A stretch of DNA of 64,000 nt from an uncultured Actinomycetes bacterium (GTDB lineage: Bacteria > Actinomycetota > Thermoleophilia > UBA2241), in contig CAVYCN010000019.1 of NCBI GenBank assembly GCA_963767005.1, forward strand, positions 32,001 through 96,000, written 5' to 3'. Under the pieces are notes generated by a model that saw only the letters and a program-made list of their open reading frames with translations, did no database searches and had not been told where the DNA came from. This document shows, piece by piece, positions 312 to 60,491 of the stretch (position 1 is the first letter of the stretch; every line of letters starts with the position of its first letter). The position numbers were made by a program, and so were the translations under genes.

Positions 312-3086
312 CTACCGCAGCTGGCGCAGCAGCAGCGCGCGACCGAGCGGTCCGAGCAGCGGGCCGACCCGACCTGCCGCCAGGCGGGTGAACGGACCGT
401 CGTGGCGCGGCGCGAAGTTGCCGGGCAACCCCGCCGGCCACCACGGATACGTCACCGCCGGCGCCCCGCCGCGCACCACGTGCAGCACGCCGCGCGCCAC
501 CTTCTGCTGCGGGTTGCCGGCCAGGTCGGTGGCGCGTACCACCACGTGATAGCTCCCCGGCTTCAGCGTGCAGCGGAACTTGAGCCAGAAGTACGACGGC
601 GTCGAACCCGTCGACCAGTCGCCGGGCCGCTCGACGAAGCGCTTCGCGACCCGTCCGCGGGAGTTCACGATCGTGATCACGGCCTTCGCCACGCCGCTCG
701 TATGGTCGGTCGCCTTGAAGCGCAGGATCCCCCAGCCGCCGCTGTCGACCGGCTTGTCGGCCGGCGCGCCGCAGACCGGCCCGAGCGTGTCGATCCCCAC
801 GTTCACGCTCTCGGTCTGCTCGACGTTGCCCGCCAGATCCGAGGAGCGGTAGAGCACCGTGTGCAGGCCGTCGTCGGCGTGACTGGCCGGCGCCTGCAGC
901 TCGACGCTGTCTCCGGGCGTCCAGGTGCCGCCGTCGACGCTGGACTGGGTGAGGTCCAGGCCGGATCCCCCCGTGTCGCTCGCGGTGAAGGGAATCGTCA
1001 CCGCGCCGCGATGCCAGCGCGGCAGCGCCGCCGGCCCCTGGATCAGGGTGACCGGGGCGGCCGTGTCGGCGTCCGGCGCGTCGACGGACGAGACCAGCGA
1101 GTCGTAGCCGAACGCCCAGACGTGCTGCGCGTCGGCGGCGACGATCGCATTGACGTCGCCGGCGCCGGCCACCTGCTGCCAGTCGGCGCCGCCGTCGGTC
1201 GTCCCGTACACACCCTCGGCGGCCCCGACCCAGCCGTGCTGGGAGTCGCTGAAGCACACGCTCTGGGCGTAGACGTCGGAGAGCCCGGGCACCGTCGCCC
1301 AGGTGGCGCCGCCGTCGGTCGTGCTCACGACGGTGTCGGTCTCCTCGTACTCGTATGCCGAGATGCGCGTGTAGGCGGCCGTGACCGCCCAGCCATCGTC
1401 GGGGTCGGCGAACGAGAGGCTCCTCATCGTCCCCTGTTCGCCACTGCTCAGGGGTATGGTCGCCCTGATCCAGCTCTGACCGCCGTCTGTCGTACGGAAG
1501 ACCGCCGGGACCTCTGAGCCGTTGCCGTTGGGCACGTAGCCGCCGGCGACGCAGCCGACATCGTCGCTCGAGAAGTCGAGGCTCGTGAGAAGGACCATGT
1601 TGGCGACGTACTGGGGCACCCAGGTCGCTCCCGCGTTCGTCGTGCGCTCGATCGCGTCGTTCGAACCCGACCCCATGCCCGGCTCGGCACTCACCGCCCA
1701 GCCGTGCGTCGCGTCGACGAACTGCACGGCCTGGAGCGGGCCGCTGAGCTGTGAGGCCTGCGGCGACCACGTCGTGCCGCCGTCGCTCGTGTGAAGGATG
1801 ATGCCGTCCATGCTGGAGTCTTCTCCGACGACCCAGCCGTCGCTCGCGTCGGAGAAGCTCACGCCGGACAGGGCGTTCAACCAGCGCCGCACCGGGCTGG
1901 CCGGGTCGGACGGTTCGGACCAGCGCGCCCCGTCGGTCGAGTGCAGCAGGGCGCCGGCACCGTCGACCGCCCAGACGTCGGTCGCCGACACCGCGTCGGC
2001 GCCCACGAACTGATAGTCCTGGCCCGACGAGGCCGCGCGCCACGTTGCGCCCCCGTCGGCCGACGTCAGGATGCCGTCGCCGACGCAGCAGACCGCGTCA
2101 CCGCGCACGGCCACCGCCCAGAGTCCGAGGGGCGCGGCGACCTGCGACTCCTGCCAGCGCGTGCCGGTGTCGCTCGTGCGCAGGAACAGCGTCGTCTGGT
2201 TTTCTGCCTCGTACACCGGGTCCTCGTCGGCTCCGAGGGGTTCGCTCGCGTCGTAGCTGAGCAGCATGGCGCTCGCCCGGCCCCCGACGGCCACGTCGCT
2301 CGCCTGAGAGCTCGCCTGCGGAACGGCGCGCCAGCGCAGGCCGCCGTCGCTCGTGACCCGCAGGGCGGTCGAGTCCCAGTCGTCGACCTCGGCAAAGGCC
2401 CAGCCATGGAGCCGGTCGACGAAGACGAGCTTCTCGACCTGCGCGCCACTCGCGAAGCCGGTGGTCTCGGCTGTCCAGCTCGTCCCGCCGTTCGTCGTAC
2501 GCCAGACGCGGCCTTTCGTGCCGCCGACCCAGCCGTGGGTGGCGTCGAGGAGGTCGACAGCCGTGTCACCCTTGTACGTGCCGATCTTGACGGTCTTCCA
2601 GGTGAGGCCGCCGTCGGTGGTCGACAGGACCGCGCCGCTGCCGGTGCCGACCCAGCCGTCCGTGTCCGTCGCGAAGCTGACGTTCATGAGCGTGGCGGCC
2701 GACCCCGCCGGCGTGCGGTCGACCCACGTGCCGCCGTCGGTCGTCGCCACGATCGCGCCCGAACCGTCGGCCGAGCCGCCACAGGCCCAGCCGTGCTCGG
2801 CGTCGGTGAAACACACCGACCACAGGTCGGCGTCGGTGCCGCTCGACGTGCCGGCCCACGACGTGCCGGCGTCGGTGCTGTGGAGGATGGCACCGCCACT
2901 CCCCACAGCCCAGACGTCGGTCGCCGTGGCGAAGGTGACCGCGCTCAGGTCGCCCGCCGGCTGCGGCATCTGCCAGACCCAGCCGTGCTGGCCGTCGGGC
3001 ACGAGTGCCGCGGCCGGCGTCGCGAGCGCGAGCGCGCCGCCGATCGTCGCGATCACGCAGAAGGCAAATGCGCGCCAGCGTGCCAT
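312..3086 (-). CDS. Secreted YCF48/BNR (Asp-box) beta-propeller protein with two C-terminal Ig-like domains
   Basis: Signal peptide (MARWRAF...AAALVP) and many T-x-D-G-G-x-T-W repeats with alternating F-x-D-x-x-H-G-W-A-V. Followed by a DTAAPVT...DGLHTVLYRSSDLAGNVE Ig module and a basic terminal Ig module. Confidence 0.85.
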   Translation of the reverse strand: MARWRAFAFCVIATIGGALALATPAAALVPDGQHGWVWQMPQPAGDLSAVTFATATDVWAVGSGGAILHSTDAGTSWAGTSSGTDADLWSVCFTDAEHGWACGGSADGSGAIVATTDGGTWVDRTPAGSAATLMNVSFATDTDGWVGTGSGAVLSTTDGGLTWKTVKIGTYKGDTAVDLLDATHGWVGGTKGRVWRTTNGGTSWTAETTGFASGAQVEKLVFVDRLHGWAFAEVDDWDSTALRVTSDGGLRWRAVPQASSQASDVAVGGRASAMLLSYDASEPLGADEDPVYEAENQTTLFLRTSDTGTRWQESQVAAPLGLWAVAVRGDAVCCVGDGILTSADGGATWRAASSGQDYQFVGADAVSATDVWAVDGAGALLHSTDGARWSEPSDPASPVRRWLNALSGVSFSDASDGWVVGEDSSMDGIILHTSDGGTTWSPQASQLSGPLQAVQFVDATHGWAVSAEPGMGSGSNDAIERTTNAGATWVPQYVANMVLLTSLDFSSDDVGCVAGGYVPNGNGSEVPAVFRTTDGGQSWIRATIPLSSGEQGTMRSLSFADPDDGWAVTAAYTRISAYEYEETDTVVSTTDGGATWATVPGLSDVYAQSVCFSDSQHGWVGAAEGVYGTTDGGADWQQVAGAGDVNAIVAADAQHVWAFGYDSLVSSVDAPDADTAAPVTLIQGPAALPRWHRGAVTIPFTASDTGGSGLDLTQSSVDGGTWTPGDSVELQAPASHADDGLHTVLYRSSDLAGNVEQTESVNVGIDTLGPVCGAPADKPVDSGGWGILRFKATDHTSGVAKAVITIVNSRGRVAKRFVERPGDWSTGSTPSYFWLKFRCTLKPGSYHVVVRATDLAGNPQQKVARGVLHVVRGGAPAVTYPWWPAGLPGNFAPRHDGPFTRLAAGRVGPLLGPLGRALLLRQLR

Positions 3087-6743: not shown

Positions 6744-7964
6744 TCAGGACACGCAGACGAGCGTGCCGATCGGGTCGTACCGGTAGACCACGGCGGCCGG
6801 GCCGTAGGGCAGCTCGACGCAGCCCAGGCTCTGCGGCCAGCCGTAGGAGCCGCGGATGAAGCCGTGCACCGCGTCGCCGCCGTTGAAGTAGGCGACGTAG
6901 GGCACGCCCGGGTCGCTGTAGTGGCTGCCGTCGGGGTTGGTGCCGCTCATCGTGGTCGACAGGTAGCGGGCGTAGACCGGGAACGTGCCGTACGCGGTCG
7001 GTCGGACCGCGATGCCCGTGTTGCAGAGGCTGCGGTAGATGGTGCGGCCGTCGGACCACACCCGCAGCGTCTCGGGGATGGCCGTCGAGACTTCGAGGTA
7101 GCGATACGCGCGCCTGGTGGCCTTGTGGTGAGAGGCGTCCTTGAGCAGGTCGGTCCAGACCGCGCGGCCGGCGACGCTGTCGGTCGCCAGGTGGTGGTCG
7201 GCTTCGAACTCCATCACCGCCCCGCGGATCAGCACCGTCGACCGCCCGCGCTTCCAGATCGCCGACAGGGTCGTCGGGATGTGGCGGTAGCGCCACTTGA
7301 AGGTGCCGGACAGCGGCTTCAGCGAGACGAGGTCGAGCGCGGCGGGCTCCCGGCTGATCGCCGAGACGGTCCCGCTGCCCGTGCCCGACGGCACTGAGAA
7401 GCGCAGCGGCAGGTAGCCGACCTCGGCGAGGAGCTGCTGCAGGCGCAGCACGGACGACGGTCCGCCCACCGTGAACGAGGCCGTGCGGGTGGCGGCAAGC
7501 CGGCCGCCGTCGGCGGCGAGCACGCCCGCGGCCCCGCCGGGGATGGTGACGGTCACCTTCGCGTACACGGGCAGGTGGCCCGTCGTCACGAACTGCAGGG
7601 TCGAGCCGGCGACCTTCCAGGCGCCCGGCACGCGGGGCTTGAGACGCGGCAGCGGCGTGTCGGCGGCCAGCGCCCTCGAGAACTTGACCGTGATGCGACT
7701 CGAGAAGGCTACGTTCGCGGCCTTGTTCTTGGGCGTCACCGAGCCGAAGCGCAGCGGCGACGGCGTCGGAGTGGGCGACGGGCTCGTGCTGTCGGACGGG
7801 CTCGGGGAGGGGCTCACGCTGCCGGACGGGCCGGGGCTCGGGTCGGACGCGGTCGAGCCAAGGGCGGTGGCATGCGACGGTACGAGCGTGAGGAAGGCGA
7901 CCGCGAGCAGCACCGCTGCGACGGGCACGGCTACCAGGATCCAACCGGCGACGAGCTTCTTCAC
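6744..7964 (-). CDS. L,D-transpeptidase with Ig-like domain
   Basis: N-terminal anchor, PS/PT-rich linker, Ig-like domain and a YkuD-type catalytic motif AVHGFIRGSYGWPQSLGCVEL. Confidence 0.88.
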   Translation of the reverse strand: MKKLVAGWILVAVPVAAVLLAVAFLTLVPSHATALGSTASDPSPGPSGSVSPSPSPSDSTSPSPTPTPSPLRFGSVTPKNKAANVAFSSRITVKFSRALAADTPLPRLKPRVPGAWKVAGSTLQFVTTGHLPVYAKVTVTIPGGAAGVLAADGGRLAATRTASFTVGGPSSVLRLQQLLAEVGYLPLRFSVPSGTGSGTVSAISREPAALDLVSLKPLSGTFKWRYRHIPTTLSAIWKRGRSTVLIRGAVMEFEADHHLATDSVAGRAVWTDLLKDASHHKATRRAYRYLEVSTAIPETLRVWSDGRTIYRSLCNTGIAVRPTAYGTFPVYARYLSTTMSGTNPDGSHYSDPGVPYVAYFNGGDAVHGFIRGSYGWPQSLGCVELPYGPAAVVYRYDPIGTLVCVS

Positions 7965-11704: not shown

Positions 11705-14482
11705 CTACGTGGTGTGCTTGCGCGGCACCGCAGGCCACTCGGCGGCATGCCAGGCGCCGCGATGCTGCGGCGCGCGCACCATGGTCGGCGCGCCGGCGAA
11801 GCGCAGCAGCCACGCGGGCCGCAGGCCGCGGTTCATGCGGTCGAACCTATAGGTGCCGAACTCGAGGCCCGCCGGCCACCACGGCGCGTGGAAGACCGGA
11901 GCGCCCTTGCGCACGACGCGCAGGACGCCGCGTCCGGTCGTCGCCTGGTGGTTGCCGGCCAGGTCCGTGGCGGTGACCACGACGCGGTAGGTGCCCGGCT
12001 TGAGCTCGCAGCTGAAACGCAGGTAGTAGTACGGGACCTCCTCGCCGAACACTTCCCAGTCGCCGGCACTCTCGACGAAGCGGCGCAGCACCCGGCCGTG
12101 CCGATCCTTGATCGCGACGGTGACGCTCTTGACGCCGCTCATCTCGTCGGTCGCCATGAAGAAGAGCGTGCCGCGGCCCCCGGTGTCGACCACGCTGTCG
12201 CGCGGCACGCCGCAGGCCGGGCCGAGGGTGTCGATGCCGACCATCCGCGATTCGGTCTGCTCCTGGTTGCCGGCCGCGTCGGTGCTGTAGTAGAGCACCG
12301 TGTGCTCGCCATCGAAGTGGTGATCGGCGTAGGCCGGCACCGTCAGCGACGCCCCGCTCTGCCAGGCGCCGGCGTCGAGGCGCGACTCGGTGCCCGCCAC
12401 GCCGGCGGTGCCGATGTCGTTGGTGGTGAAGCCGATGGTCAGCGGCTTGCGGTGCCAGCCGGTGTCGGCACGCTCGTCGAGGGTCACCGGAGCGGCCGTG
12501 TCACCGGCCGGGTCGAGGGTCGAGACGAGGAACCCGTCGCCGAAGGCCCAGACGTGGTGCGCGTCGGTGCCGACGATCGATTCGACGCCGTAACCGGCCG
12601 CGACCCGCTGCCAGTCCGTGCCGCCGTCGGTCGTCTGATAGACACCGTTGTAGCCGCCCAGCCAGCCGTGCTGCTGGTCGCTGAAATGGACGGTCGTGGC
12701 CTGCGCGTCGCCGAGGCCAGGCACCTGCGCCCAGGTCGCGCCACCGTCGGTCGTGTGCAGCACCCAGCCCGCCTCGACGTCGTCGTTCTCGTCGTAGGTC
12801 ACGCCGACCGCCCAGCCCTCGGTCGGGCTCACGAACTGCAGGCCGGTGATCGCGGGAGCCCCCTTGGGCAGCTTCTCGCGCGTCCAGGTGAAGCCGCCGT
12901 TCGTGGTGGCGAAGATCGCGCCGGCCGGATAGGAGAAGTCGGACGACCACCAGTAGCCGCCCACCCAGCCGTCGGACGCGTCGGTGAAGTCCATCGCGAT
13001 GAGGCCCATGTTGCCGGGCACGAACTGCGGGATCCAGGTGGCGCCGCCGTCGGTCGTGTGCTCGATCGACAGGTTGGCGCCCTCGTTCCAGCCGGTGGTG
13101 TCGTTGCTGACCGCCCAGGCCGTCTGGGCGTCGACGGCGTCGACCCCCCAGAGGCCGCCGCCGAGGTTGGACTGCTGCGGCTCCCAGGTGGCGCCGCCGT
13201 CGGTCGTGTGGAAGATCAGGCTGCCGTCGCCCCAGTCGTCGCTAGCGCCGACCGCCCAGCCGTTGGCGGCGTCGGCGAAATCGACACCCAGCAGCGCCGT
13301 GGTGCCACGCAGCGGCACGGGCTGCTCGACGAAGCGGGCCCCGTCGGTGCTGTGCAGCAGCGCGCCGGAGGTGTCGACGGCCCACAGGTCGGTGGCCGAG
13401 ACCGCGTCGGCGGAAGCGAACTCGTATTGCTGGCCCGAGCTGCCCGACCGCCAGGTGGTGCCGGCGTCGGTCGAGAGCAGGATGCCGTCGCCCACCGAGC
13501 ACACAGACGCCCCGCTCGCCGCGATCGTGTACGGCATGGCGGGCGCGGCCACGGTGGTGGTGCGCCAGCTGAAGCCGCCGTTGCTCGAGTGCAGGAACAT
13601 GGTCGGCGCCTGGATGTCGTAGTCGTCCCAGCTCTCGCCGACCGCCCACAGGCCGCCCAGGCCATCGGTGCAGAGATCCGACACCGAGACATCTCCGAAT
13701 TCGCGCAGCGGCAGCCAGGAACGGCCCCCGTCGTGCGTGAAGATGAGCATCGAGTCGCCCCAGCCGTCGGTCGTAAGGCCCCAGCCGTCGGAGCGGTCGG
13801 TGAACACGAGCTGCTGGAGCATGTTGTAGCCTTCGCTGCCCGGATAGCGACTCGAGGTCCACGTGCGACCGGCGTTCGTCGTGCGCCAGATGCGGCCCCG
13901 GGGGCCGCCGGCCCAGCCGTGCCGAGCGTCGACGAAGTCGACCACTACGCTGTCCTTGCCGGCGCTCGGCAGCGCTATCGTCGCCCAGGTGGCGCCGCCG
14001 TCGGTCGTCTTGAGCACGGTGCCGACGGCCGTGCCGACCCAGCCGTGGGTCGCGTCGCTGAAGCTCACGTTCGTGAGCGTCGCCGTGAGGCCGGCCGGCG
14101 TGACGTCGGACCAGTCCGCGCCGGCGTCGGTCGTGCGCAGGATCACGCCCGGCTCGTCGGCGGTCGCCTGGCCGCCGACCACGCAGCCGTGGTCGGCGTC
14201 GGCGAAGGCCACCGACCACAGGTCGGCGTCGCTGCCGGTCGGCTGCGCCGCCCAGGTGGCGCCGCCGTCGGTGCTGCGTTCGACGAGGCCGCCGAGGCCG
14301 ACGGCCCACGCCTGGCCGGGAGCCGCGAACGTGCAGCCGTTGAGCGCGGCCGCCGGTTGCGGCATCTGCCAGTACCAGCCATGCGCACCGTCGGGCGCGA
14401 GCGCGCGAGCGACTCCGGGCAAGACAGCGAGCGCCGCGAGCGCCGCCGCCATCGTGATGCAGACCATCCAGGCACGTCTCAT
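11705..14482 (-). CDS. Secreted YCF48/BNR beta-propeller protein, paralog of 312..3086
   Basis: Same architecture. Shares APDG.HGW.WQMPQPA at the mature N-terminus, SSGQ.Y.F..ADAVSATD.WAVD internally and the PWWPAGL tail. ATG at 14482. Confidence 0.85.
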   Translation of the reverse strand: MRRAWMVCITMAAALAALAVLPGVARALAPDGAHGWYWQMPQPAAALNGCTFAAPGQAWAVGLGGLVERSTDGGATWAAQPTGSDADLWSVAFADADHGCVVGGQATADEPGVILRTTDAGADWSDVTPAGLTATLTNVSFSDATHGWVGTAVGTVLKTTDGGATWATIALPSAGKDSVVVDFVDARHGWAGGPRGRIWRTTNAGRTWTSSRYPGSEGYNMLQQLVFTDRSDGWGLTTDGWGDSMLIFTHDGGRSWLPLREFGDVSVSDLCTDGLGGLWAVGESWDDYDIQAPTMFLHSSNGGFSWRTTTVAAPAMPYTIAASGASVCSVGDGILLSTDAGTTWRSGSSGQQYEFASADAVSATDLWAVDTSGALLHSTDGARFVEQPVPLRGTTALLGVDFADAANGWAVGASDDWGDGSLIFHTTDGGATWEPQQSNLGGGLWGVDAVDAQTAWAVSNDTTGWNEGANLSIEHTTDGGATWIPQFVPGNMGLIAMDFTDASDGWVGGYWWSSDFSYPAGAIFATTNGGFTWTREKLPKGAPAITGLQFVSPTEGWAVGVTYDENDDVEAGWVLHTTDGGATWAQVPGLGDAQATTVHFSDQQHGWLGGYNGVYQTTDGGTDWQRVAAGYGVESIVGTDAHHVWAFGDGFLVSTLDPAGDTAAPVTLDERADTGWHRKPLTIGFTTNDIGTAGVAGTESRLDAGAWQSGASLTVPAYADHHFDGEHTVLYYSTDAAGNQEQTESRMVGIDTLGPACGVPRDSVVDTGGRGTLFFMATDEMSGVKSVTVAIKDRHGRVLRRFVESAGDWEVFGEEVPYYYLRFSCELKPGTYRVVVTATDLAGNHQATTGRGVLRVVRKGAPVFHAPWWPAGLEFGTYRFDRMNRGLRPAWLLRFAGAPTMVRAPQHRGAWHAAEWPAVPRKHTT

Positions 14483-14558
14483 GTGCCACCCCCCAGCGCC
14501 GTTGCCCATCACTGCCAGATGCGAGGACGCGACCGTGTCGCCACGGCCGGCTCGCTCG

Positions 14559-15932
14559 TCAGCGCACGACCAGCCTGTTGCCGGCCGCCGCGGTCTGCCG
14601 GTTGCCGGCCTGGTCGGTCGCCGCCACGGTGAAGCGGTAGCGCCCCTTGGGCAGCCAGCAGGTGAACTCGTAGCGTTGCAGGCGGTCGACCGCGACCCCG
14701 GTCAGGACCGTCTTGTACACGAGCTTGCGGTGACGATCGACGATCCTGAGCGTCACGGTCGCGGTCGGGCTGCCGGGCCGGGCGTCGCGCACCAGATAGC
14801 GCAGCGCGCAGCGTGCGCCCCGCCGGGCCAGGCCGGCCCAGTTGGCGACCGGCGTCGGCCGGCGCGTGTCGATCAGGACCAGGCAGGCGCGCTTTCTTTC
14901 GACGTTGCCGACCTTGTCGGTGGAGCGGTAGAGGATGCGGTGGATGCCGTCGCCGGAGTGGTTCGCGGCAGCGGCCACGGTGAGCGCCGTGCCCACCGTC
15001 CAGGTGGCGCCGCCGTCGGTCGAGTACGTCGTCGAGGCGACGCCCTGACCACCCGAGTTGTCGCGCGCCACGAAACGCAGCTTCGCGGGGGCGCTGCGCC
15101 AGCGTCCGACGGCGCCGACCACGGTGGTGCGCGGCGGCGTGCAGTCGGTCGTGACGTAGAAGCTCGCGCCGTCGGCGCCCAGGTCGGACGTCTTGGCGAC
15201 CAGGGCGTCGCTGTACTCGCTCGTCATGTTGATGCGGTTCCAGTCGTAGGCCGAGATGGGCTGGCCGTCGAAGCTGCAGCCGCTGAAGTGCACGATGGCG
15301 AAGTCGCTCACCGGCAGCACGTCGCCCTCGTCGCTCGACGGCGCCTCGGCGATCGCCTCGGCCGACGCCAAGGCGGGCGGGATGCTCATGAGCTGGCCGG
15401 TGCTGAAGGTGTCGCCGGTCGTGGCGTCGGTGAGCGTCAACGTGAAGCTCGCCGGCTGCGCCCAGGTGACGGTGCCGGTCATCGCGTCGCCGGCGTGGAT
15501 CGCCATGTCGATCGCCACCGGGTAGAGCGGGTACATCTCGTACCAGGCGTCGTAGCCGCCCACGCCCTCGCTGTAGCCCTCGGTGCCGATCTGCTCGACC
15601 GTGTCGGAGTTGTCGCCGTCGAGGCCGACCCAGAAGGCCGCGTCTGAAAACATGGTCCCGGTGACGCGAACGCGCGGCTGGACCCAGGTGGCGGTGACCG
15701 TGCCGAAGGGACCGTCGGTCGAGTCGTCGTAGCCCGACCAGTTCACCGAGGTCGTGGTGGTGCCGGCGAAGGCGGCGGCGCCGGCGGCCGGGCGCGCCGT
15801 CTGCCCCGACCCGCTCGTGATCAGCGGCTCGGTGTGCGTCGGCGGCCGGGTCGCGGCCGAGGCCGCGGCGGGCACCGCGACCGCGGCGAGCATTGCTGCC
15901 GCGCACCCGAACACGAGGACCAGACGTCTCAT
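14559..15932 (-). CDS. Secreted G1 family glutamic endopeptidase (eqolisin-like) with C-terminal Ig-like domains
   Basis: Signal peptide, then SVNWSGY, WVGLDG, VEQIGT (catalytic Gln region), AWYEMYP and SAEAIAEAP (catalytic Glu region). Confidence 0.85.
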   Translation of the reverse strand: MRRLVLVFGCAAAMLAAVAVPAAASAATRPPTHTEPLITSGSGQTARPAAGAAAFAGTTTTSVNWSGYDDSTDGPFGTVTATWVQPRVRVTGTMFSDAAFWVGLDGDNSDTVEQIGTEGYSEGVGGYDAWYEMYPLYPVAIDMAIHAGDAMTGTVTWAQPASFTLTLTDATTGDTFSTGQLMSIPPALASAEAIAEAPSSDEGDVLPVSDFAIVHFSGCSFDGQPISAYDWNRINMTSEYSDALVAKTSDLGADGASFYVTTDCTPPRTTVVGAVGRWRSAPAKLRFVARDNSGGQGVASTTYSTDGGATWTVGTALTVAAAANHSGDGIHRILYRSTDKVGNVERKRACLVLIDTRRPTPVANWAGLARRGARCALRYLVRDARPGSPTATVTLRIVDRHRKLVYKTVLTGVAVDRLQRYEFTCWLPKGRYRFTVAATDQAGNRQTAAAGNRLVVR

Positions 15933-17690: not shown

Positions 17691-18749
17691 TCAGACGCCG
17701 AACGCCTCGGTGCCCCACGGCGAGGCGGCGACCGCCGTGGCGACGGCGAGCGCGTCGTCGCCGCGCTGCAGGGCGGCGAGGATGGGGCCGTACAGGCCGT
17801 CGCGCAGCGTCGCGACGGTCGCGACGAAGCCCTCGGCCCAGCTCGTGTACGCCTTGACGCCGACACCGTTCATGGCGGTGGCGCCGGGCTCGGGCATGGT
17901 CGTGTCGAGCGGGTTGTAGCGCGCGGCGTTGAACCAGTGGCCGCCCTCGGCGAACTCCCATGCGGTGATCGCGGTCAGATTCTGCGAGCTGAGCGGCGCG
18001 CCCAGGTAGCCGAGCAGGGCCCGGGCCCAGCTTTCGGGCGTGTAGGCGCCGGCGACGCCCGGCAGCGTGGTCGCGCCGCGGGCCCGGGCGGCGGCCGCCG
18101 CGGCGGCCGCCGCCCGGGCCCGCTCCTTCGCCTGCGCGACGAGCGACTGCACCCGGCTCTGGGCCGCGGCCAGCAGCGCTTCGCCGCGATGCACCTCGGT
18201 CACGAGCTCGGTACGCTCGCCGGCGACCTGGGCCACGAGGGCGGCCGCACGCCGGCGCTGCGCGGCGAGGCGCACGCCCTGGCGCTCCACGCGGGCCTTG
18301 GACGCCCTTACCTGGGTGACCGCGTCTTGCGCCTGCTCGTAGATATCGCTCCAGAGGCGTACCCGGCTCACGAGGTCGTCGAAGCTGCCCGCCGTGAGCG
18401 CCGCGTCGAGGAAGCCGCTCGCCGGCGACTTGTAGAGGGCGACGAGACGCATGGCCAGCGTGCCCCGCGCGACCGCGAGGTCGTAGCGCGCGACGGCGAG
18501 GTCGTGACGGTTGCCGACGACGCTCGCGTCGACGGCCGCGAGGCGCTGGGTCGTCGCATCGTAGCGGGCGGCCGCCGCGGCGAGCTCGCCGTTCAGCGTG
18601 GCGACGTCGCCGCCCAGGCTGGCCGCCCTGGCCCTGGCCTGACCGACCGAGGGCGCGGCGGCGGCCGCGCGGGGCATGGCCAGACAACCCGTGAGGGCGA
18701 TGACGGCGACGAGGAAGACGATGGACATGCGGGGGCGTGGACCGGACAC
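17691..18749 (-). CDS. Secreted coiled-coil protein with C-terminal lysozyme/lytic-transglycosylase-like domain (putative cell-wall hydrolase)
   Basis: Signal peptide, PcsB/CwlO-like coiled coil (RLVALYK..LDAALTAGSFDDLVSR), then AWEFAEGG...YNPLDTT...GVKAYTSW; GTG start with AGGAGG. Confidence 0.7.
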   Translation of the reverse strand: MSGPRPRMSIVFLVAVIALTGCLAMPRAAAAAPSVGQARARAASLGGDVATLNGELAAAAARYDATTQRLAAVDASVVGNRHDLAVARYDLAVARGTLAMRLVALYKSPASGFLDAALTAGSFDDLVSRVRLWSDIYEQAQDAVTQVRASKARVERQGVRLAAQRRRAAALVAQVAGERTELVTEVHRGEALLAAAQSRVQSLVAQAKERARAAAAAAAAARARGATTLPGVAGAYTPESWARALLGYLGAPLSSQNLTAITAWEFAEGGHWFNAARYNPLDTTMPEPGATAMNGVGVKAYTSWAEGFVATVATLRDGLYGPILAALQRGDDALAVATAVAASPWGTEAFGV

Positions 18750-20095: not shown

Positions 20096-21598
20096 TCAGG
20101 GGACCGACACGCAGGTGGTCGCCAGGCTCAGCATCTGCCGGTTGCTGAGCTCTTCGTCGAGCGTGTTGGCGATCCAGTAGGCGACGCCACCGCGCTGCCA
20201 GGCGACCATGGTGAGATGGGCGCCGTCGTAGTAAAGCGAGTAGGTGCGTCCGCCGATGGTGCGGGTCGCATCGGGGTTCGCCAGGATCGGCGCACCCGGC
20301 CAGGCGATGGCCTGCACGTCCCAAAAGCCGCCCTGCGGCGTCGTGCCGACCACGACGGCGGCGCGCGCGCTGCCCGCGCCGGTCGGCACACCGTAGGCGC
20401 GGAAGTCGTCGTATCCGAGGCCCGCCGGCAGGCCGGCCGGCATGAAGAGCGTCAGACCGGCGTGACGCTGCAAGGTGCGCCACTGCGGCAGATGGACGGT
20501 GTCCGTGATCCTCACCGGGCGACGTGCGCCCGATCGGGCTGTACCGCCCGCCGCGCCGGACCCTGCGCCCGCGCCATCGCCGTGCGAGCTCGTGGTCGTC
20601 CCCCCGCGCGGCGCCGGCGTCGGGTGCAGGAACTGCCGCACGGCGGCGTGCACCTGCTGCGACGTCGCGACGACGTACGAGACGCCGTTGATGGTCGGCG
20701 TCGAGCCGTCGATGTGCGTCTGGTAGATGTGGTGAGTGTTCAGGCTCAGGGCCAGGGACACGATGCCGTAGAGCTTGCCGAGGCTCGAGATGTCCGAGGT
20801 CACGTTGTGCGACAGGATGCTCATCACCGACAAGAAGCGCGGCAGGCTCGTGAGCGTGGCCGAGCCGGCGAGCTCGCGCTTCATCTCGCGCAGGAACATC
20901 TGCTGGCGCACGATGCGCGTGAAGTCGCCGTTCTGATCGTGACGGAAGCGCACCCAGCCGAGCGCCTGCGCGCCGTTCAACCGCTGGTATCCGGGCTGGA
21001 TGTCGATCGACGCGTAGTTGGTGACCGCCGTGTTGTTGTAGTAGCGCCGGTCGATCATGAGGTAGGCCCCGCCGAGCTTGTTGACGACCTGCTTGAAGCC
21101 GTCGAAGTCGATGTCGACGAAGTCGTTGATCGGCACGCCGAGCAGGTGACGCACGACCTCGAGCGCCAGGCGGGCGCCGCCGAGCGAGTAGGCCGCATTG
21201 ATCTTGTTCTGGCCGTAGCCGGGGATCGTGACGAGCAGGTCGCGCGGCACCGAGAGCATCGAGACGCTGCCGGTCCGGGGGTCGAGCCGCACGAGGAGCA
21301 GCGTGTCGGAGCGCGCGCCGAGGTCGGGCTGGCCGGCGCGCCGGTCGCTGCCGATGATCAGGATGTCCACCGGCTTGCCCGACCGTGGCGCGGTGAGCTG
21401 CGAGGCCGCCGCCTTCACCTCGCCCGGGTCGTTGCGGGCGACCTGTCCCGCTGTGCGCTGCAGAAAGCCGGTGAGCGCGCCCGCCGTGGCCGCGACGAAG
21501 CAGACCACGGCCACGACGGCGATCCCCAGGACGCGCGTCCAAAGAACGGGGGACGCTCGGCGTCCCCCACGTGCGGTATATCGCTTGTAGGTCGCCAC
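20096..21598 (-). CDS. LCP (LytR-CpsA-Psr) family cell-wall glycopolymer ligase
   Basis: TM segment, then IGSDRR, RSDTLLLVRLD, SVPRD, KINAAYSLGG and RFRH..GDFTRIVRQQ. Confidence 0.92.
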   Translation of the reverse strand: MATYKRYTARGGRRASPVLWTRVLGIAVVAVVCFVAATAGALTGFLQRTAGQVARNDPGEVKAAASQLTAPRSGKPVDILIIGSDRRAGQPDLGARSDTLLLVRLDPRTGSVSMLSVPRDLLVTIPGYGQNKINAAYSLGGARLALEVVRHLLGVPINDFVDIDFDGFKQVVNKLGGAYLMIDRRYYNNTAVTNYASIDIQPGYQRLNGAQALGWVRFRHDQNGDFTRIVRQQMFLREMKRELAGSATLTSLPRFLSVMSILSHNVTSDISSLGKLYGIVSLALSLNTHHIYQTHIDGSTPTINGVSYVVATSQQVHAAVRQFLHPTPAPRGGTTTSSHGDGAGAGSGAAGGTARSGARRPVRITDTVHLPQWRTLQRHAGLTLFMPAGLPAGLGYDDFRAYGVPTGAGSARAAVVVGTTPQGGFWDVQAIAWPGAPILANPDATRTIGGRTYSLYYDGAHLTMVAWQRGGVAYWIANTLDEELSNRQMLSLATTCVSVP

Positions 21599-58271: not shown

Positions 58272-60491
58272 ATGTCGCCTGCCCGCCGCACCCTGCTCGC
58301 CAGCCTCGCCACCCTCGTCGCTTTGTTCGCCGGCGCCCTGGCCCTGCCCGCCGCCGCCGCCGCGCTGACATCGACCGGCGACGGCTCCTGGGTGTGGCAG
58401 AACCCGCAGCCCATGGGCACCATCATGAACGGCGTCAGCTTCGTGTCGGCCAGCCAGGGCTGGGCCGTCGGCGACGGCGGCGCCGTGCTCATGACCATGA
58501 ACGGCGGCGCGACCTGGACGGCCGAGCACTCCGGCTCGTCGGCGTATCTGACGGGCGTCGACTTCACCGACGCGCTGCACGGCTGGGCGGTCGGCGAGAT
58601 CGGCTACGAGGGTGTGGTGCTGGCGACCACGAACGGCGGCCTGTCCTGGCGCCTGCAGGACACGGTCGCCAACGACGAGCTCACCGGGGTGCGGTTCGCC
58701 GACGCGCGGCACGGCTGGATGGTCGGCCTGAACGGCACCACCTTCGCCACGACCGACGGCGGCGCGCACTGGACGAGGCACTCGGGCGCCGCCACCGACA
58801 GCCTGTACGGCATCGCCTGTGCCGGCACCCTGCGGGCCTGGGCCACCGGCGACGGCGGCGAGATCGAGGCCACGACCGACGGCGGCAAGCACTGGCGGCT
58901 GCAGGGCGTCGGCATCACGGACGAGGACCTGAACGCGGTCACCTTCGCCAGCGCTGCCGACGGTTGGGCGGTCGGCGATTCCGGCACGATCGTCGCCACG
59001 ACCGACGGCGGCAAGCACTGGCGGCTGCAGGGCGTCGGCATCACGTCGGAGTACCTGAGGGCCGTCGCCTTCCGTGACGCCGCGCACGGCTACGCCGTCG
59101 GCAACAGCGGCACCGTCCTGCGCACGGCAAACGGCGGCAAGAAGTGGACCGCGAGCTCGCCGACGACGGTCGATCTGTGCGCGGTCGCCGCGCCGGCGAC
59201 CGGCAGGGCCTGCGCCGTGGGGCGCGACGCGGTCTCGCTGCTCAGTACGAACGGCGGCAGCACCTGGACGCAGCACGGCGCCCAGGGGCCGACCGGAGAG
59301 CTCGACGCCGTGTCCTTCCCCGACGCCCTGAACGGCTGGGCGGCCGGCGACGGTGACGAGACCGTGCTGCACACCAGCGACGGCGGCGCCACGTGGGCGT
59401 CGCAGGACGCCGGCGCGGGAGCCGCGCTTCTGGCCGTGCATTTCGCCGACTCTCAGCACGGCTGGGCGGCCGGGTTCTCGGGCCAAATCTACGGCACCAC
59501 CGACGGCGGGCAGACCTGGCAGCAGCAGGGCGCCGGGGTGACGACGCAGAACCTCGAGGCCGTCGCGACGACCGACGCCCAGCACGCCTGGGCGAGCGGC
59601 GAGGCCGGCACCATCGTCGCCACGACCGACGGCGGTCAGACCTGGCAGCAGCAGAGCGTCGATCTCCCGACAGGCTACGGGACCGACACGGTCTACAGCC
59701 TGGCCTTCGCCAGCGACGACGTCGGCTGGGCCGCCTGTTTTAACCCGATGTCGGGCTCGCGGAACGGCGTGATCCTCGGCACCACCAACGGCGGCGGGAC
59801 CTGGACGGTCCAGTACTCGAACGACAACGACGAGCTGTACGCCGCAGCCTGTGCAGGCACGTCCGACGCCTGGGTCGCGTCGAGCACGAACAGCACTGTG
59901 TACCGCACGACCGACGGCGGCACGACGTGGACCCCGGTGGGGCTCGGCGCGCTCGCCAGCGGCGTGCTCAGCGTCGCCTTCGCCCCCGACGCTCTCCACG
60001 GCTGGGCGACCACGTGGATGCCGACCGACGGCATTATCGCGACGACCGACGGCGGCGCCACCTGGACGGGGCAGGACGTCGGCACGGGCCAGTCCCTGTA
60101 CGGCCTGGCCTGTACCGATGCGACCCACGCCTGGGCCGTCGGCGAAGAGGGCGGCATCCTCGCCACGGCCACCGGCGGCGTGCGCGACACGACGCGCCCC
60201 CGCACGACTGCGCTCAAGGCCGTCACGGTAGTGCACAACCACCGCTGCAGCCTGCGCTACAAGGTCACCGACGCGGGCGGCGGCACGGCCCTCGTCGTCA
60301 TCCTCATCAAGACCACGCACGGCAAGCTCGTGCGCTCGCTCACGCTCGGCTCGCGAGCCGAGAACACACCGCTGTCGGTCTCGCTCAAGGCGACGATGGC
60401 CAAGGGCAGCTACCGCTGGTACGTCGTGGCGACCGACGCCGCCGGCAACACGCAGGCGAGCGTCGGCAGCGCGAAGCTGACCGTCAAGTAG
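58272..60491 (+). CDS. Secreted YCF48/BNR beta-propeller protein with basic C-terminal Ig-like domain
   Basis: Signal peptide, W.WQNPQP, many T(T/N/D)GG.TW repeats and terminal DTTRPRT...YVVATDAAGNTQ...LTVK. Confidence 0.85.
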   Translation: MSPARRTLLASLATLVALFAGALALPAAAAALTSTGDGSWVWQNPQPMGTIMNGVSFVSASQGWAVGDGGAVLMTMNGGATWTAEHSGSSAYLTGVDFTDALHGWAVGEIGYEGVVLATTNGGLSWRLQDTVANDELTGVRFADARHGWMVGLNGTTFATTDGGAHWTRHSGAATDSLYGIACAGTLRAWATGDGGEIEATTDGGKHWRLQGVGITDEDLNAVTFASAADGWAVGDSGTIVATTDGGKHWRLQGVGITSEYLRAVAFRDAAHGYAVGNSGTVLRTANGGKKWTASSPTTVDLCAVAAPATGRACAVGRDAVSLLSTNGGSTWTQHGAQGPTGELDAVSFPDALNGWAAGDGDETVLHTSDGGATWASQDAGAGAALLAVHFADSQHGWAAGFSGQIYGTTDGGQTWQQQGAGVTTQNLEAVATTDAQHAWASGEAGTIVATTDGGQTWQQQSVDLPTGYGTDTVYSLAFASDDVGWAACFNPMSGSRNGVILGTTNGGGTWTVQYSNDNDELYAAACAGTSDAWVASSTNSTVYRTTDGGTTWTPVGLGALASGVLSVAFAPDALHGWATTWMPTDGIIATTDGGATWTGQDVGTGQSLYGLACTDATHAWAVGEEGGILATATGGVRDTTRPRTTALKAVTVVHNHRCSLRYKVTDAGGGTALVVILIKTTHGKLVRSLTLGSRAENTPLSVSLKATMAKGSYRWYVVATDAAGNTQASVGSAKLTVK
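58869..59045 (+). repeat. Exact 51-bp intragenic repeat (126-bp, 42-aa period)
   Basis: GCCACGACCGACGGCGGCAAGCACTGGCGGCTGCAGGGCGTCGGCATCACG at 58869 and 58995. Confidence 0.85.

Follow-up and report, generated by a model that had tools for sequence, protein, structure and literature searches.

The window analysed here, a stretch of 64,000 nucleotides on contig CAVYCN010000019.1 of an uncultured Actinomycetes bacterium, encodes four exported proteins which share a homologous module, predicted to be immunoglobulin (Ig)-like, at or near their C-termini. In the host genome (G000; 3.44 Mb, 100% complete) this module, called class I below, is mostly basic and terminal, and a second Ig family (class II) shows the same two properties. 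We propose that the class I module is a non-covalent, mainly electrostatic anchor which would bind an anionic wall glycopolymer. We assign this reading a probability of about 0.6.

Module-bearing proteins in the window

Three of the four carriers are encoded on the minus strand. A secreted BNR/YCF48-type beta-propeller of 924 aa (312..3086) consists of a signal peptide (aa 1–27), an acidic passenger (net charge −62), an OmpL47-type module (795..1067, net −8), the class I module (471..794, aa 765–872, net +9) and a 52-aa tail (315..470, net +5) with a conserved A-P...P-x-W-P-x-G-L stretch and a basic end. Its paralogue, a secreted beta-propeller of 925 aa (11705..14482, start ATG at 14482, passenger net −59), contains an OmpL47-type module (12236..12502, net −8) ahead of the class I module (11909..12235, aa 750–858) and a 67-aa tail (11708..11908, net +7) with the same W-P-x-G-L stretch; with a net charge of +1 and an isoelectric point (pI) of 8.0, its class I module is the least basic of the genome’s set. 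Directly upstream of this propeller gene lies that of a secreted glutamic peptidase of 457 aa (14559..15932; Pfam Peptidase_A4, family G1), whose catalytic domain (approx. 15152–15743) is followed by an OmpL47-type module (14874..15146, net +6) and, at the extreme C-terminus, the class I module (14562..14873, net +15). The fourth carrier, a secreted BNR/YCF48-type beta-propeller of 739 aa on the plus strand (58272..60491, passenger net −39), has no OmpL47-type module and likewise has a class I module as its extreme C-terminus (60183..60488, net +12).

The four modules are 102–109 aa long and pairwise 30–57% identical, and the passengers are acidic throughout (net −17 to −62, pI 4.1–4.5). All four proteins have a signal-peptide-like N-terminus, judged by eye and hydropathy. 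The sequence-only reading of this DNA had placed homologous modules on three propellers and one G1 peptidase, and its positions agree with ours within a few bases. It was also right that the module forms the extreme C-terminus of two proteins (...LVVR and ...LTVK), the other two having the 52- and 67-aa tails, and that a second shared module precedes it in three; the latter is of OmpL47 type and scores 56, 51 and 46 bits against an NCBIfam NF047446 cut-off of 40. An LPxTG motif is absent from the last 60 aa of all four carriers, and SLH has no match anywhere in the genome, as had been stated for these proteins. The described pairing of a basic module with an acidic passenger holds for three carriers (+9, +15 and +12) but not for the near-neutral module at 11909–12235.

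The gene pair of G1 peptidase and large propeller is duplicated in the genome (window 11705–15932 and G000 C4:524465-528783). Bacterial G1 peptidases number three in this genome, all with a class I module. The tail of 52–67 aa with the A-P...P-x-W-P-x-G-L stretch and basic end occurs only in four large propellers, i.e., two in the window and those at G000 C4:559478 and C4:524465, whose modules have a Trp-containing loop insertion and a lower charge (+1 to +9).

Occurrence of the module in the host genome and beyond

A hidden Markov model (HMM) built from the four window modules alone detected 14 further proteins of the genome (domain E-values 2e-34 to 2.5e-9); the best reversed open reading frame (ORF) decoy for the iterated model reached an E-value of 0.27. 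The genome has 19 carrier genes, scoring 70–118 bits on a 19-sequence profile, a range that is partly circular because the carriers built the profile. Thirteen of them end flush with the module, four are the large propellers with 52–67 aa extra, and two hold it internally, preceding a YkuD transpeptidase and a beta-lactamase-like domain. Two weaker internal copies sit ahead of polysaccharide deacetylases. A signal-peptide-like start in the open frame was recognized by eye in 18/19 carriers, and the nineteenth is a downstream gene piece whose upstream piece has such a start. The HMM search suggested by the sequence-only reading thus gave the outcome named there as support: genomes hold many copies, these are terminal with few exceptions, and their carriers have signal peptides and varied N-termini.

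The terminal position is retained elsewhere. Of the 114 homologues that were scored against the window module (window protein included), 100 end within 2 aa of the module, 95 of these without any extra residue; 13 end within 11–14 aa and one is internal. A further set, from other genera, took in every match at E 1e-6 in four genomes of three genera (54 in total) plus two from the genome G011, with one dropped on account of an internal stop; 51/55 matches cover at least 80 profile positions. These full-length matches are terminal in 46/51 and internal in 5/51 cases, and the terminal ones have a median net charge of +14 (minimum −4). Carriers of this set lacking an in-frame signal peptide proved on inspection to be mostly fragments or to lie at contig ends.

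The passengers are diverse. Scanning 49 carriers, we found peptidases (C1A, C11, S8, M6, M10, M14), other enzymes (amidases, a GDSL lipase, a C5-epimerase-like domain) and propellers (BNR, NHL, RCC1, FG-GAP, DUF5122), and 9/49 had no Pfam match at E 1e-7. Internal copies total seven (2/19 in G000, 5/51 elsewhere) and are followed by 180–440 aa; the enzymes preceded by internal copies include an L,D-transpeptidase, beta-lactamase-like proteins, polysaccharide deacetylases, an M14 peptidase and a C5-epimerase-like domain. In one such protein (L073:189-2594, genome G014) the domain is D-glucuronyl C5-epimerase-like, an enzyme type which acts on uronic-acid polymers. At the C-terminus of a conserved amidase (L001:4901-7432) with true FlgD_ig repeats upstream, and of its orthologues at L047, L053, L065 and L082, the copy of the module is divergent and less basic (−4 to +10).

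For the taxonomic comparison within family and class, 19 candidates were scored per genome. All 46 same-family genomes (46/46) match class I at E 1.3e-19 or better. In other families of the class, 64/204 genomes match at E 1e-5, only one of them better than 1e-13, and phylum-wide 6/300 genomes match at E 1e-8. One of these six, G509, belongs to another class, has 40% GC and shows an expansion of its own, with 12 carriers, 11 of them terminal, at net +9 to +33. The class name rests on homologue source names, which read Thermoleophilia for 2/115. The module is concentrated in one family, yet not confined to it. The earlier idea of a lineage-specific module therefore stands as far as restricted taxonomy is concerned, but strict restriction to the family is rejected, given the G509 carriers and the matches in 6/300 phylum genomes.

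Charge of the module

Across 21 modules the median net charge is +8, compared to −5 for the preceding 95 aa (Wilcoxon p 7e-5). As a background, the median is −1 for the C-terminal 102 aa of 1752 other proteins, 6% of which reach +7 or more. In an alignment of 66 modules, K or R make up at least 50% at 13 positions which are spread over strands and turns across the domain; K and R interchange and none is invariant. Such a diffuse charge is as expected for a polyanion ligand. In five genomes of other families, picked for their best matches, terminal copies carry +6 to +26, while the Ig repeats of stalks carry −2 to −7; two internal matches in these genomes are basic as well (+10 and +22). An artefact of GC content was considered and rejected: lysine amounts to 4.7% in the modules versus 2.0% in the proteome, and the charge of +9 to +33 is kept in G509 at its low GC.

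Exchange of the module between passengers

The window G1 peptidase and its paralogue on contig C4 are 67% identical in the catalytic domain and 53% in the module. The same window module (14562–14873) is 77% identical to that of an unrelated propeller on contig C2, while the preceding domains are 46% identical. A tree built from 66 modules has starred clades in which G1 and propeller passengers, or C1A and propeller passengers, stand together; this was a quick version with 6/63 branches starred and most forks unresolved. Mapping the passenger labels on it requires 38 changes. As judged from these sequences, the module is both inherited with its passenger and swapped as a unit, because the 38 changes lie between the minimum of 23 and the 50 obtained with shuffled labels.

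A second family of basic terminal Ig domains

Screening for basic, beta-rich C-termini yielded class II, which is present on 15 ORFs of G000, among them two pairs of identical duplicates, and weakly on two more. A terminal copy is found on 14/15 ORFs, with net charges of +3 to +20. Carriers include C15:35769-38765, C19:13649-16645, C3:452032-457346, C16:5614-8337 and C4:530244-533609 of G000; further ones are labelled L086–L095, L002, L004 and L007. Class II is predicted to be an Ig sandwich, too, and a profile comparison with class I gave no significant similarity (probability 14%). The two classes share charge and terminal position, not sequence. All 27 family genomes searched contain class II (27/27), it is weakly matched in several other families, and G509 has many class II-like tails. 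At the best loci of 24 genomes, 22/32 matches are terminal, with a median charge of +14.5. Some proteins end in near-identical tandem class II domains of net +9 to +14 each, five copies in L113 (G041:C1:1587348-1590641) and three in L107 (G020:C1:848975-852268), an arrangement which looks like that of wall-binding repeats. Together, class I and class II mark about 35 exported proteins of G000, many of them proteases and propellers.

In an RCC1 protein, a class II domain also follows immediately on the signal peptide. At C15:35769-38765 and C19:13649-16645, two adjacent genes with identical C-terminal 130 aa are found twice, on different contigs, possibly due to assembly duplication.

Fold, relatives and conserved residues

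The AlphaFold model of the module at 14562–14873 (pLDDT 92) is an all-beta, Ig-like sandwich. Foldseek returned generic Ig folds for both classes, and leads in the ESM Atlas stayed under 0.9 and were all Ig clusters. Structural re-alignment gave a PKD domain as the best hit (Z 11.8, root-mean-square deviation (rmsd) 2.3, 94 aligned residues) and 224 chains at Z of at least 8. A comparison with FlgD-type Ig domains and the C-terminal domain (CTD) of type IX secretion system (T9SS) cargo had been proposed before; it was borne out in that the module is predicted as an Ig-like sandwich with PorU among the matches (Z 9.0, rmsd 2.9, 95 aligned), but PorU does not rise above unrelated Ig folds.

By sequence, the nearest relatives are bacterial Ig repeats of adhesins. 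The best matches with solved structures are SiiE (2yn3), Lap (6xi3) and the Siglec-like GspB (5iuc), with whole-protein E-values of 1.5e-9 to 8e-6, and in a profile search of 1.84 billion representatives the best 150 were all giant Ig adhesins. Like Big_13/BIg adhesin repeats, the module has an Ig-like sandwich, a D-T-x-x-P start, G-x-Y and D-x-A-G-N; unlike these repeated, internal and acidic domains, it is single, terminal and basic. Class I, a predicted offshoot of the bacterial Ig (Big_13) repeat, is a distinct subfamily: on the module profile none of the 3064 Ig domains in these 150 adhesins scores above 36 bits, as opposed to 70–118 for the G000 carriers. When 18 aligned modules were scanned alone, 2/18 reached the Big_13 (PF19077) gathering threshold of 27 bits (28.5 and 27.1), and three window modules scored 20–23 bits. 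For FlgD_ig (PF13860) the best aligned module attained 21.9 bits versus 27 (best E 1.7e-4, below cut-off). Scans of NCBIfam and Pfam turned up no curated model that covers the class I module, and SLH, CWB2, SLAP, GW and LysM gave no Pfam match on the modules at E 0.1.

Near-invariant residues in the 66 modules are D2, P6, D30, G77, Y79, D87, A89, G90 and N91, with D2 present in 95%, D30 in 90% and D87 in 100%. In SiiE, a type I calcium site draws one Asp from the preceding domain and two from the following one, and it contributes to rigidity (PMC5466336). The aspartates D2, D30 and D87 likely resemble the 117D/43D/97D pattern of that site, where we infer the residue equivalence. A conserved disulfide was rejected, as cysteine patterns vary and 18/66 modules have no cysteine.

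Envelope and wall glycan genes

The host is judged to be monoderm by gene content. Omp85 was not found in 6/6 genomes (G000 and five other carriers), with a control matched in 7 of 14. PorP/SprF was matched in 0/5 genomes, and the control genomes likewise gave none. The T9SS tail models TIGR04183, TIGR04131, PF18962 and CHU_C had no match among 19 modules in NCBIfam at E 0.1, nor did T9SS tail models among 21 isolated modules in Pfam at the same threshold. By eye, the 221 membrane or exported proteins shared by G509 and G000 in this two-genome comparison look like housekeeping; among the 23 less obvious ones that were scanned, 17 belong to known families and six had no Pfam match at E 1e-8. 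Like SLH, CWB2 had no match in G000. A simple pattern scan of G000 revealed no LPxTG substrates genome-wide; a single class E-like sortase is encoded near dnaA (L045:8942-9574, contig C4).

Wall-glycan genes of G000 include those for four LCPs, one of which has a UDP-glucose dehydrogenase nearby, together with a WecA/TagO-like initiator, a pyruvyltransferase and a UDP-HexNAc dehydrogenase cluster, although most of these names are best matches below curated equivalog cut-offs. A TagF-type polymerase was not found in G000, and the TagF family is present in 1/21 family genomes; classical teichoic acid was hence rejected as a general ligand. An anionic, non-teichoic wall glycan in G000 is plausible, because LCPs, dehydrogenases and a pyruvyltransferase are present and TagF was not found. 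A candidate wall-glycan locus on contig C6 (L040:12594-18471 and L041:516-2291) contains genes for an LCP, an unannotated membrane-anchored protein of 579 aa, an exported protein of 124 aa, an O-antigen-ligase-family protein and a UDP-glucose dehydrogenase.

The window itself encodes an LCP glycopolymer transferase (20096..21514, minus strand), one of the four, and a YkuD L,D-transpeptidase with a Big_5 domain and no class I module (6744..7964, minus strand). Both had been named as possible partners and both are real; here they serve as context only. Between the G1 gene and the LCP lies an exported PcsB-type coiled-coil protein (17691–18728), likely a wall enzyme, again lacking the module.

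Possible modes of action

If the class I module is an electrostatic wall anchor, the carriers would be exported by Sec or Tat, and the module would stick to the wall with the acidic passenger pointing outward, on an acidic Ig stalk where present. Together, D2, D30 and D87 would likely bind calcium and so stiffen the joint to the domain ahead of the module. As the ligand, a polysaccharide which LCP enzymes attach and which contains uronic acid or is pyruvylated would be more likely than classical teichoic acid, and neither cleavage nor a dedicated receptor would be needed. None of 20 proteins classed as having a C-terminal membrane anchor carries a class I or class II module.

Several observations weigh against this reading. 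The exclusion of module and membrane anchor is partly built in, as a protein has one C-terminus for the two. An end flush at L-x-V-[RK]-stop (95/114) is tighter than plain charge binding needs, and some copies are neutral or acidic (+1 in the window, −1 and −4 terminal, −13 internal). The linkage between LCP genes and carriers is weak, 5/17 LCP genes lying within 10 kb of a carrier versus 1.7 expected (P approx. 0.02, uncorrected and with cases that are not independent; at 5 kb 3/17, P 0.06), and the pyruvyltransferase is present in 2/5 genomes only. Finally, membrane lipids, extracellular DNA or soil polyanions would be equally good targets for a polycation.

The same diffuse charge could indeed make the module a cationic adhesion tip for another polyanion, be it membrane phospholipid, an S-layer or other surface protein, extracellular DNA, biofilm matrix, or humic and mineral surfaces, which would keep enzymes near the cell. 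The basic tails of the four large propellers fit such a tip as moderately amphipathic helices (moment 0.60–0.79), and so do the closest solved sequence relatives, i.e., adhesin Ig and Siglec-like domains. However, the internal copies ahead of peptidoglycan- and polysaccharide-acting enzymes and the conserved amidase copy point to the cell’s own wall, and no S-layer protein turned up, albeit no search was aimed at S-layer proteins; we regard this option as unlikely. Nor does it seem probable that the module is a passive cap or intramolecular chaperone which ends an Ig stalk or neutralizes the acidic passenger in export and has no ligand at the surface. In favour of this, the residues that are invariant in the module (D-T-x-x-P, G-x-Y, D-x-A-G-N) are general features of Ig domains and common to adhesin repeats. 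Yet the module is present in the window protein at 58272, which has no stalk at all, the adhesin Ig domains stay far below the carriers on the module profile, and both Ig families retain their charge, of up to +33, in genomes of 40% and 71% GC.

The sequence-only reading had also considered routing to a dedicated machinery. In such a T9SS-like scheme within a monoderm, a machine would recognize the folded C-terminus and process, glycosylate or attach the cargo; the best argument for it is the flush L-x-V-[RK] end. Family-wide presence, recent swaps between passengers, the weak FlgD_ig matches, PorU among the fold matches and an O-antigen-ligase-family gene two genes from one LCP are compatible with it, and T9SS tails tolerate C-terminal extension (PMC11285876). 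A T9SS-like export signal is nevertheless unlikely, because the host lacks Omp85 and the modules match no T9SS tail model. The seven internal copies with their 180–440 following aa speak against such a machine as well, as do two families which show the same pattern with no detectable homology, the class II tandem repeats, the PorU score, which does not exceed that of unrelated Ig folds, and the comparison of G000 with G509, in which no unusual shared membrane machine appeared. We thus consider dedicated machinery quite improbable. An equally long shot is a surface-display system of deep-branching Actinomycetota in which both cationic Ig tail families would be read by a dedicated partner, e.g., an LCP or an O-antigen-ligase-family transferase coupling cargo to wall glycan, as a monoderm counterpart of T9SS tail sorting.

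Comparison with known systems and significance

For the electrostatic wall anchor, the closest functional model is the SLAP domain of Lactobacillus, likewise terminal and cationic. In SlpA, SLAP (PF03217) is C-terminal, has a pI of 9.92 and acts as a non-covalent anchor binding teichoic acids, for which its cationic nature is needed; it is released by LiCl, CTAB or pH 10 (PMC10293925). SLAP has been suggested to be SH3-related rather than Ig (PMC5817068). Unlike SLAP, the module has no SLAP match among its Pfam matches, and its host has no TagF-type teichoic acid polymerase. With the T9SS CTD (TIGR04183, PF18962, CHU_C) and FlgD_ig, the module shares a terminal Ig-like sandwich, unrelated signal-peptide cargo and a conserved last strand; it differs from the T9SS CTD by a host with no outer-membrane marker, no tail-model match, internal copies and no processing enzyme identified. 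A described analogue, the basic terminal domain FPm-1 of Fibrobacter succinogenes, is C-terminal on 24 secreted enzymes, its function being unclear and surface localization having been proposed (PMC3079729); its host is diderm, unlike the present one. For monoderms, the available part of a review lists LPXTG, LysM, WXL, SH3, SPOR, CWB and SLH as types of wall-binding domain (PMC5817068).

In the literature searched, with subscription papers and preprint supplements outside its coverage, no description of the module or its anchoring route was found. We know of no study on the surface retention of enzymes in Thermoleophilia or deep, mostly uncultured Actinomycetota. New here are the swap test, the convergence of two families in one genome, the tandem repeats, the second, low-GC expansion and the negative machinery comparison. 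The kind of mechanism, a cationic non-covalent wall anchor, is already known from Lactobacillus SLAP, which limits the surprise. The genome of this organism has neither SLH nor CWB2 and no clear sortase substrates, and the two cationic Ig families are a convenient marker of the lineage’s surface proteome. If the proposed anchoring is true, a common Ig stalk repeat would have been turned into an anchor by charge reversal.

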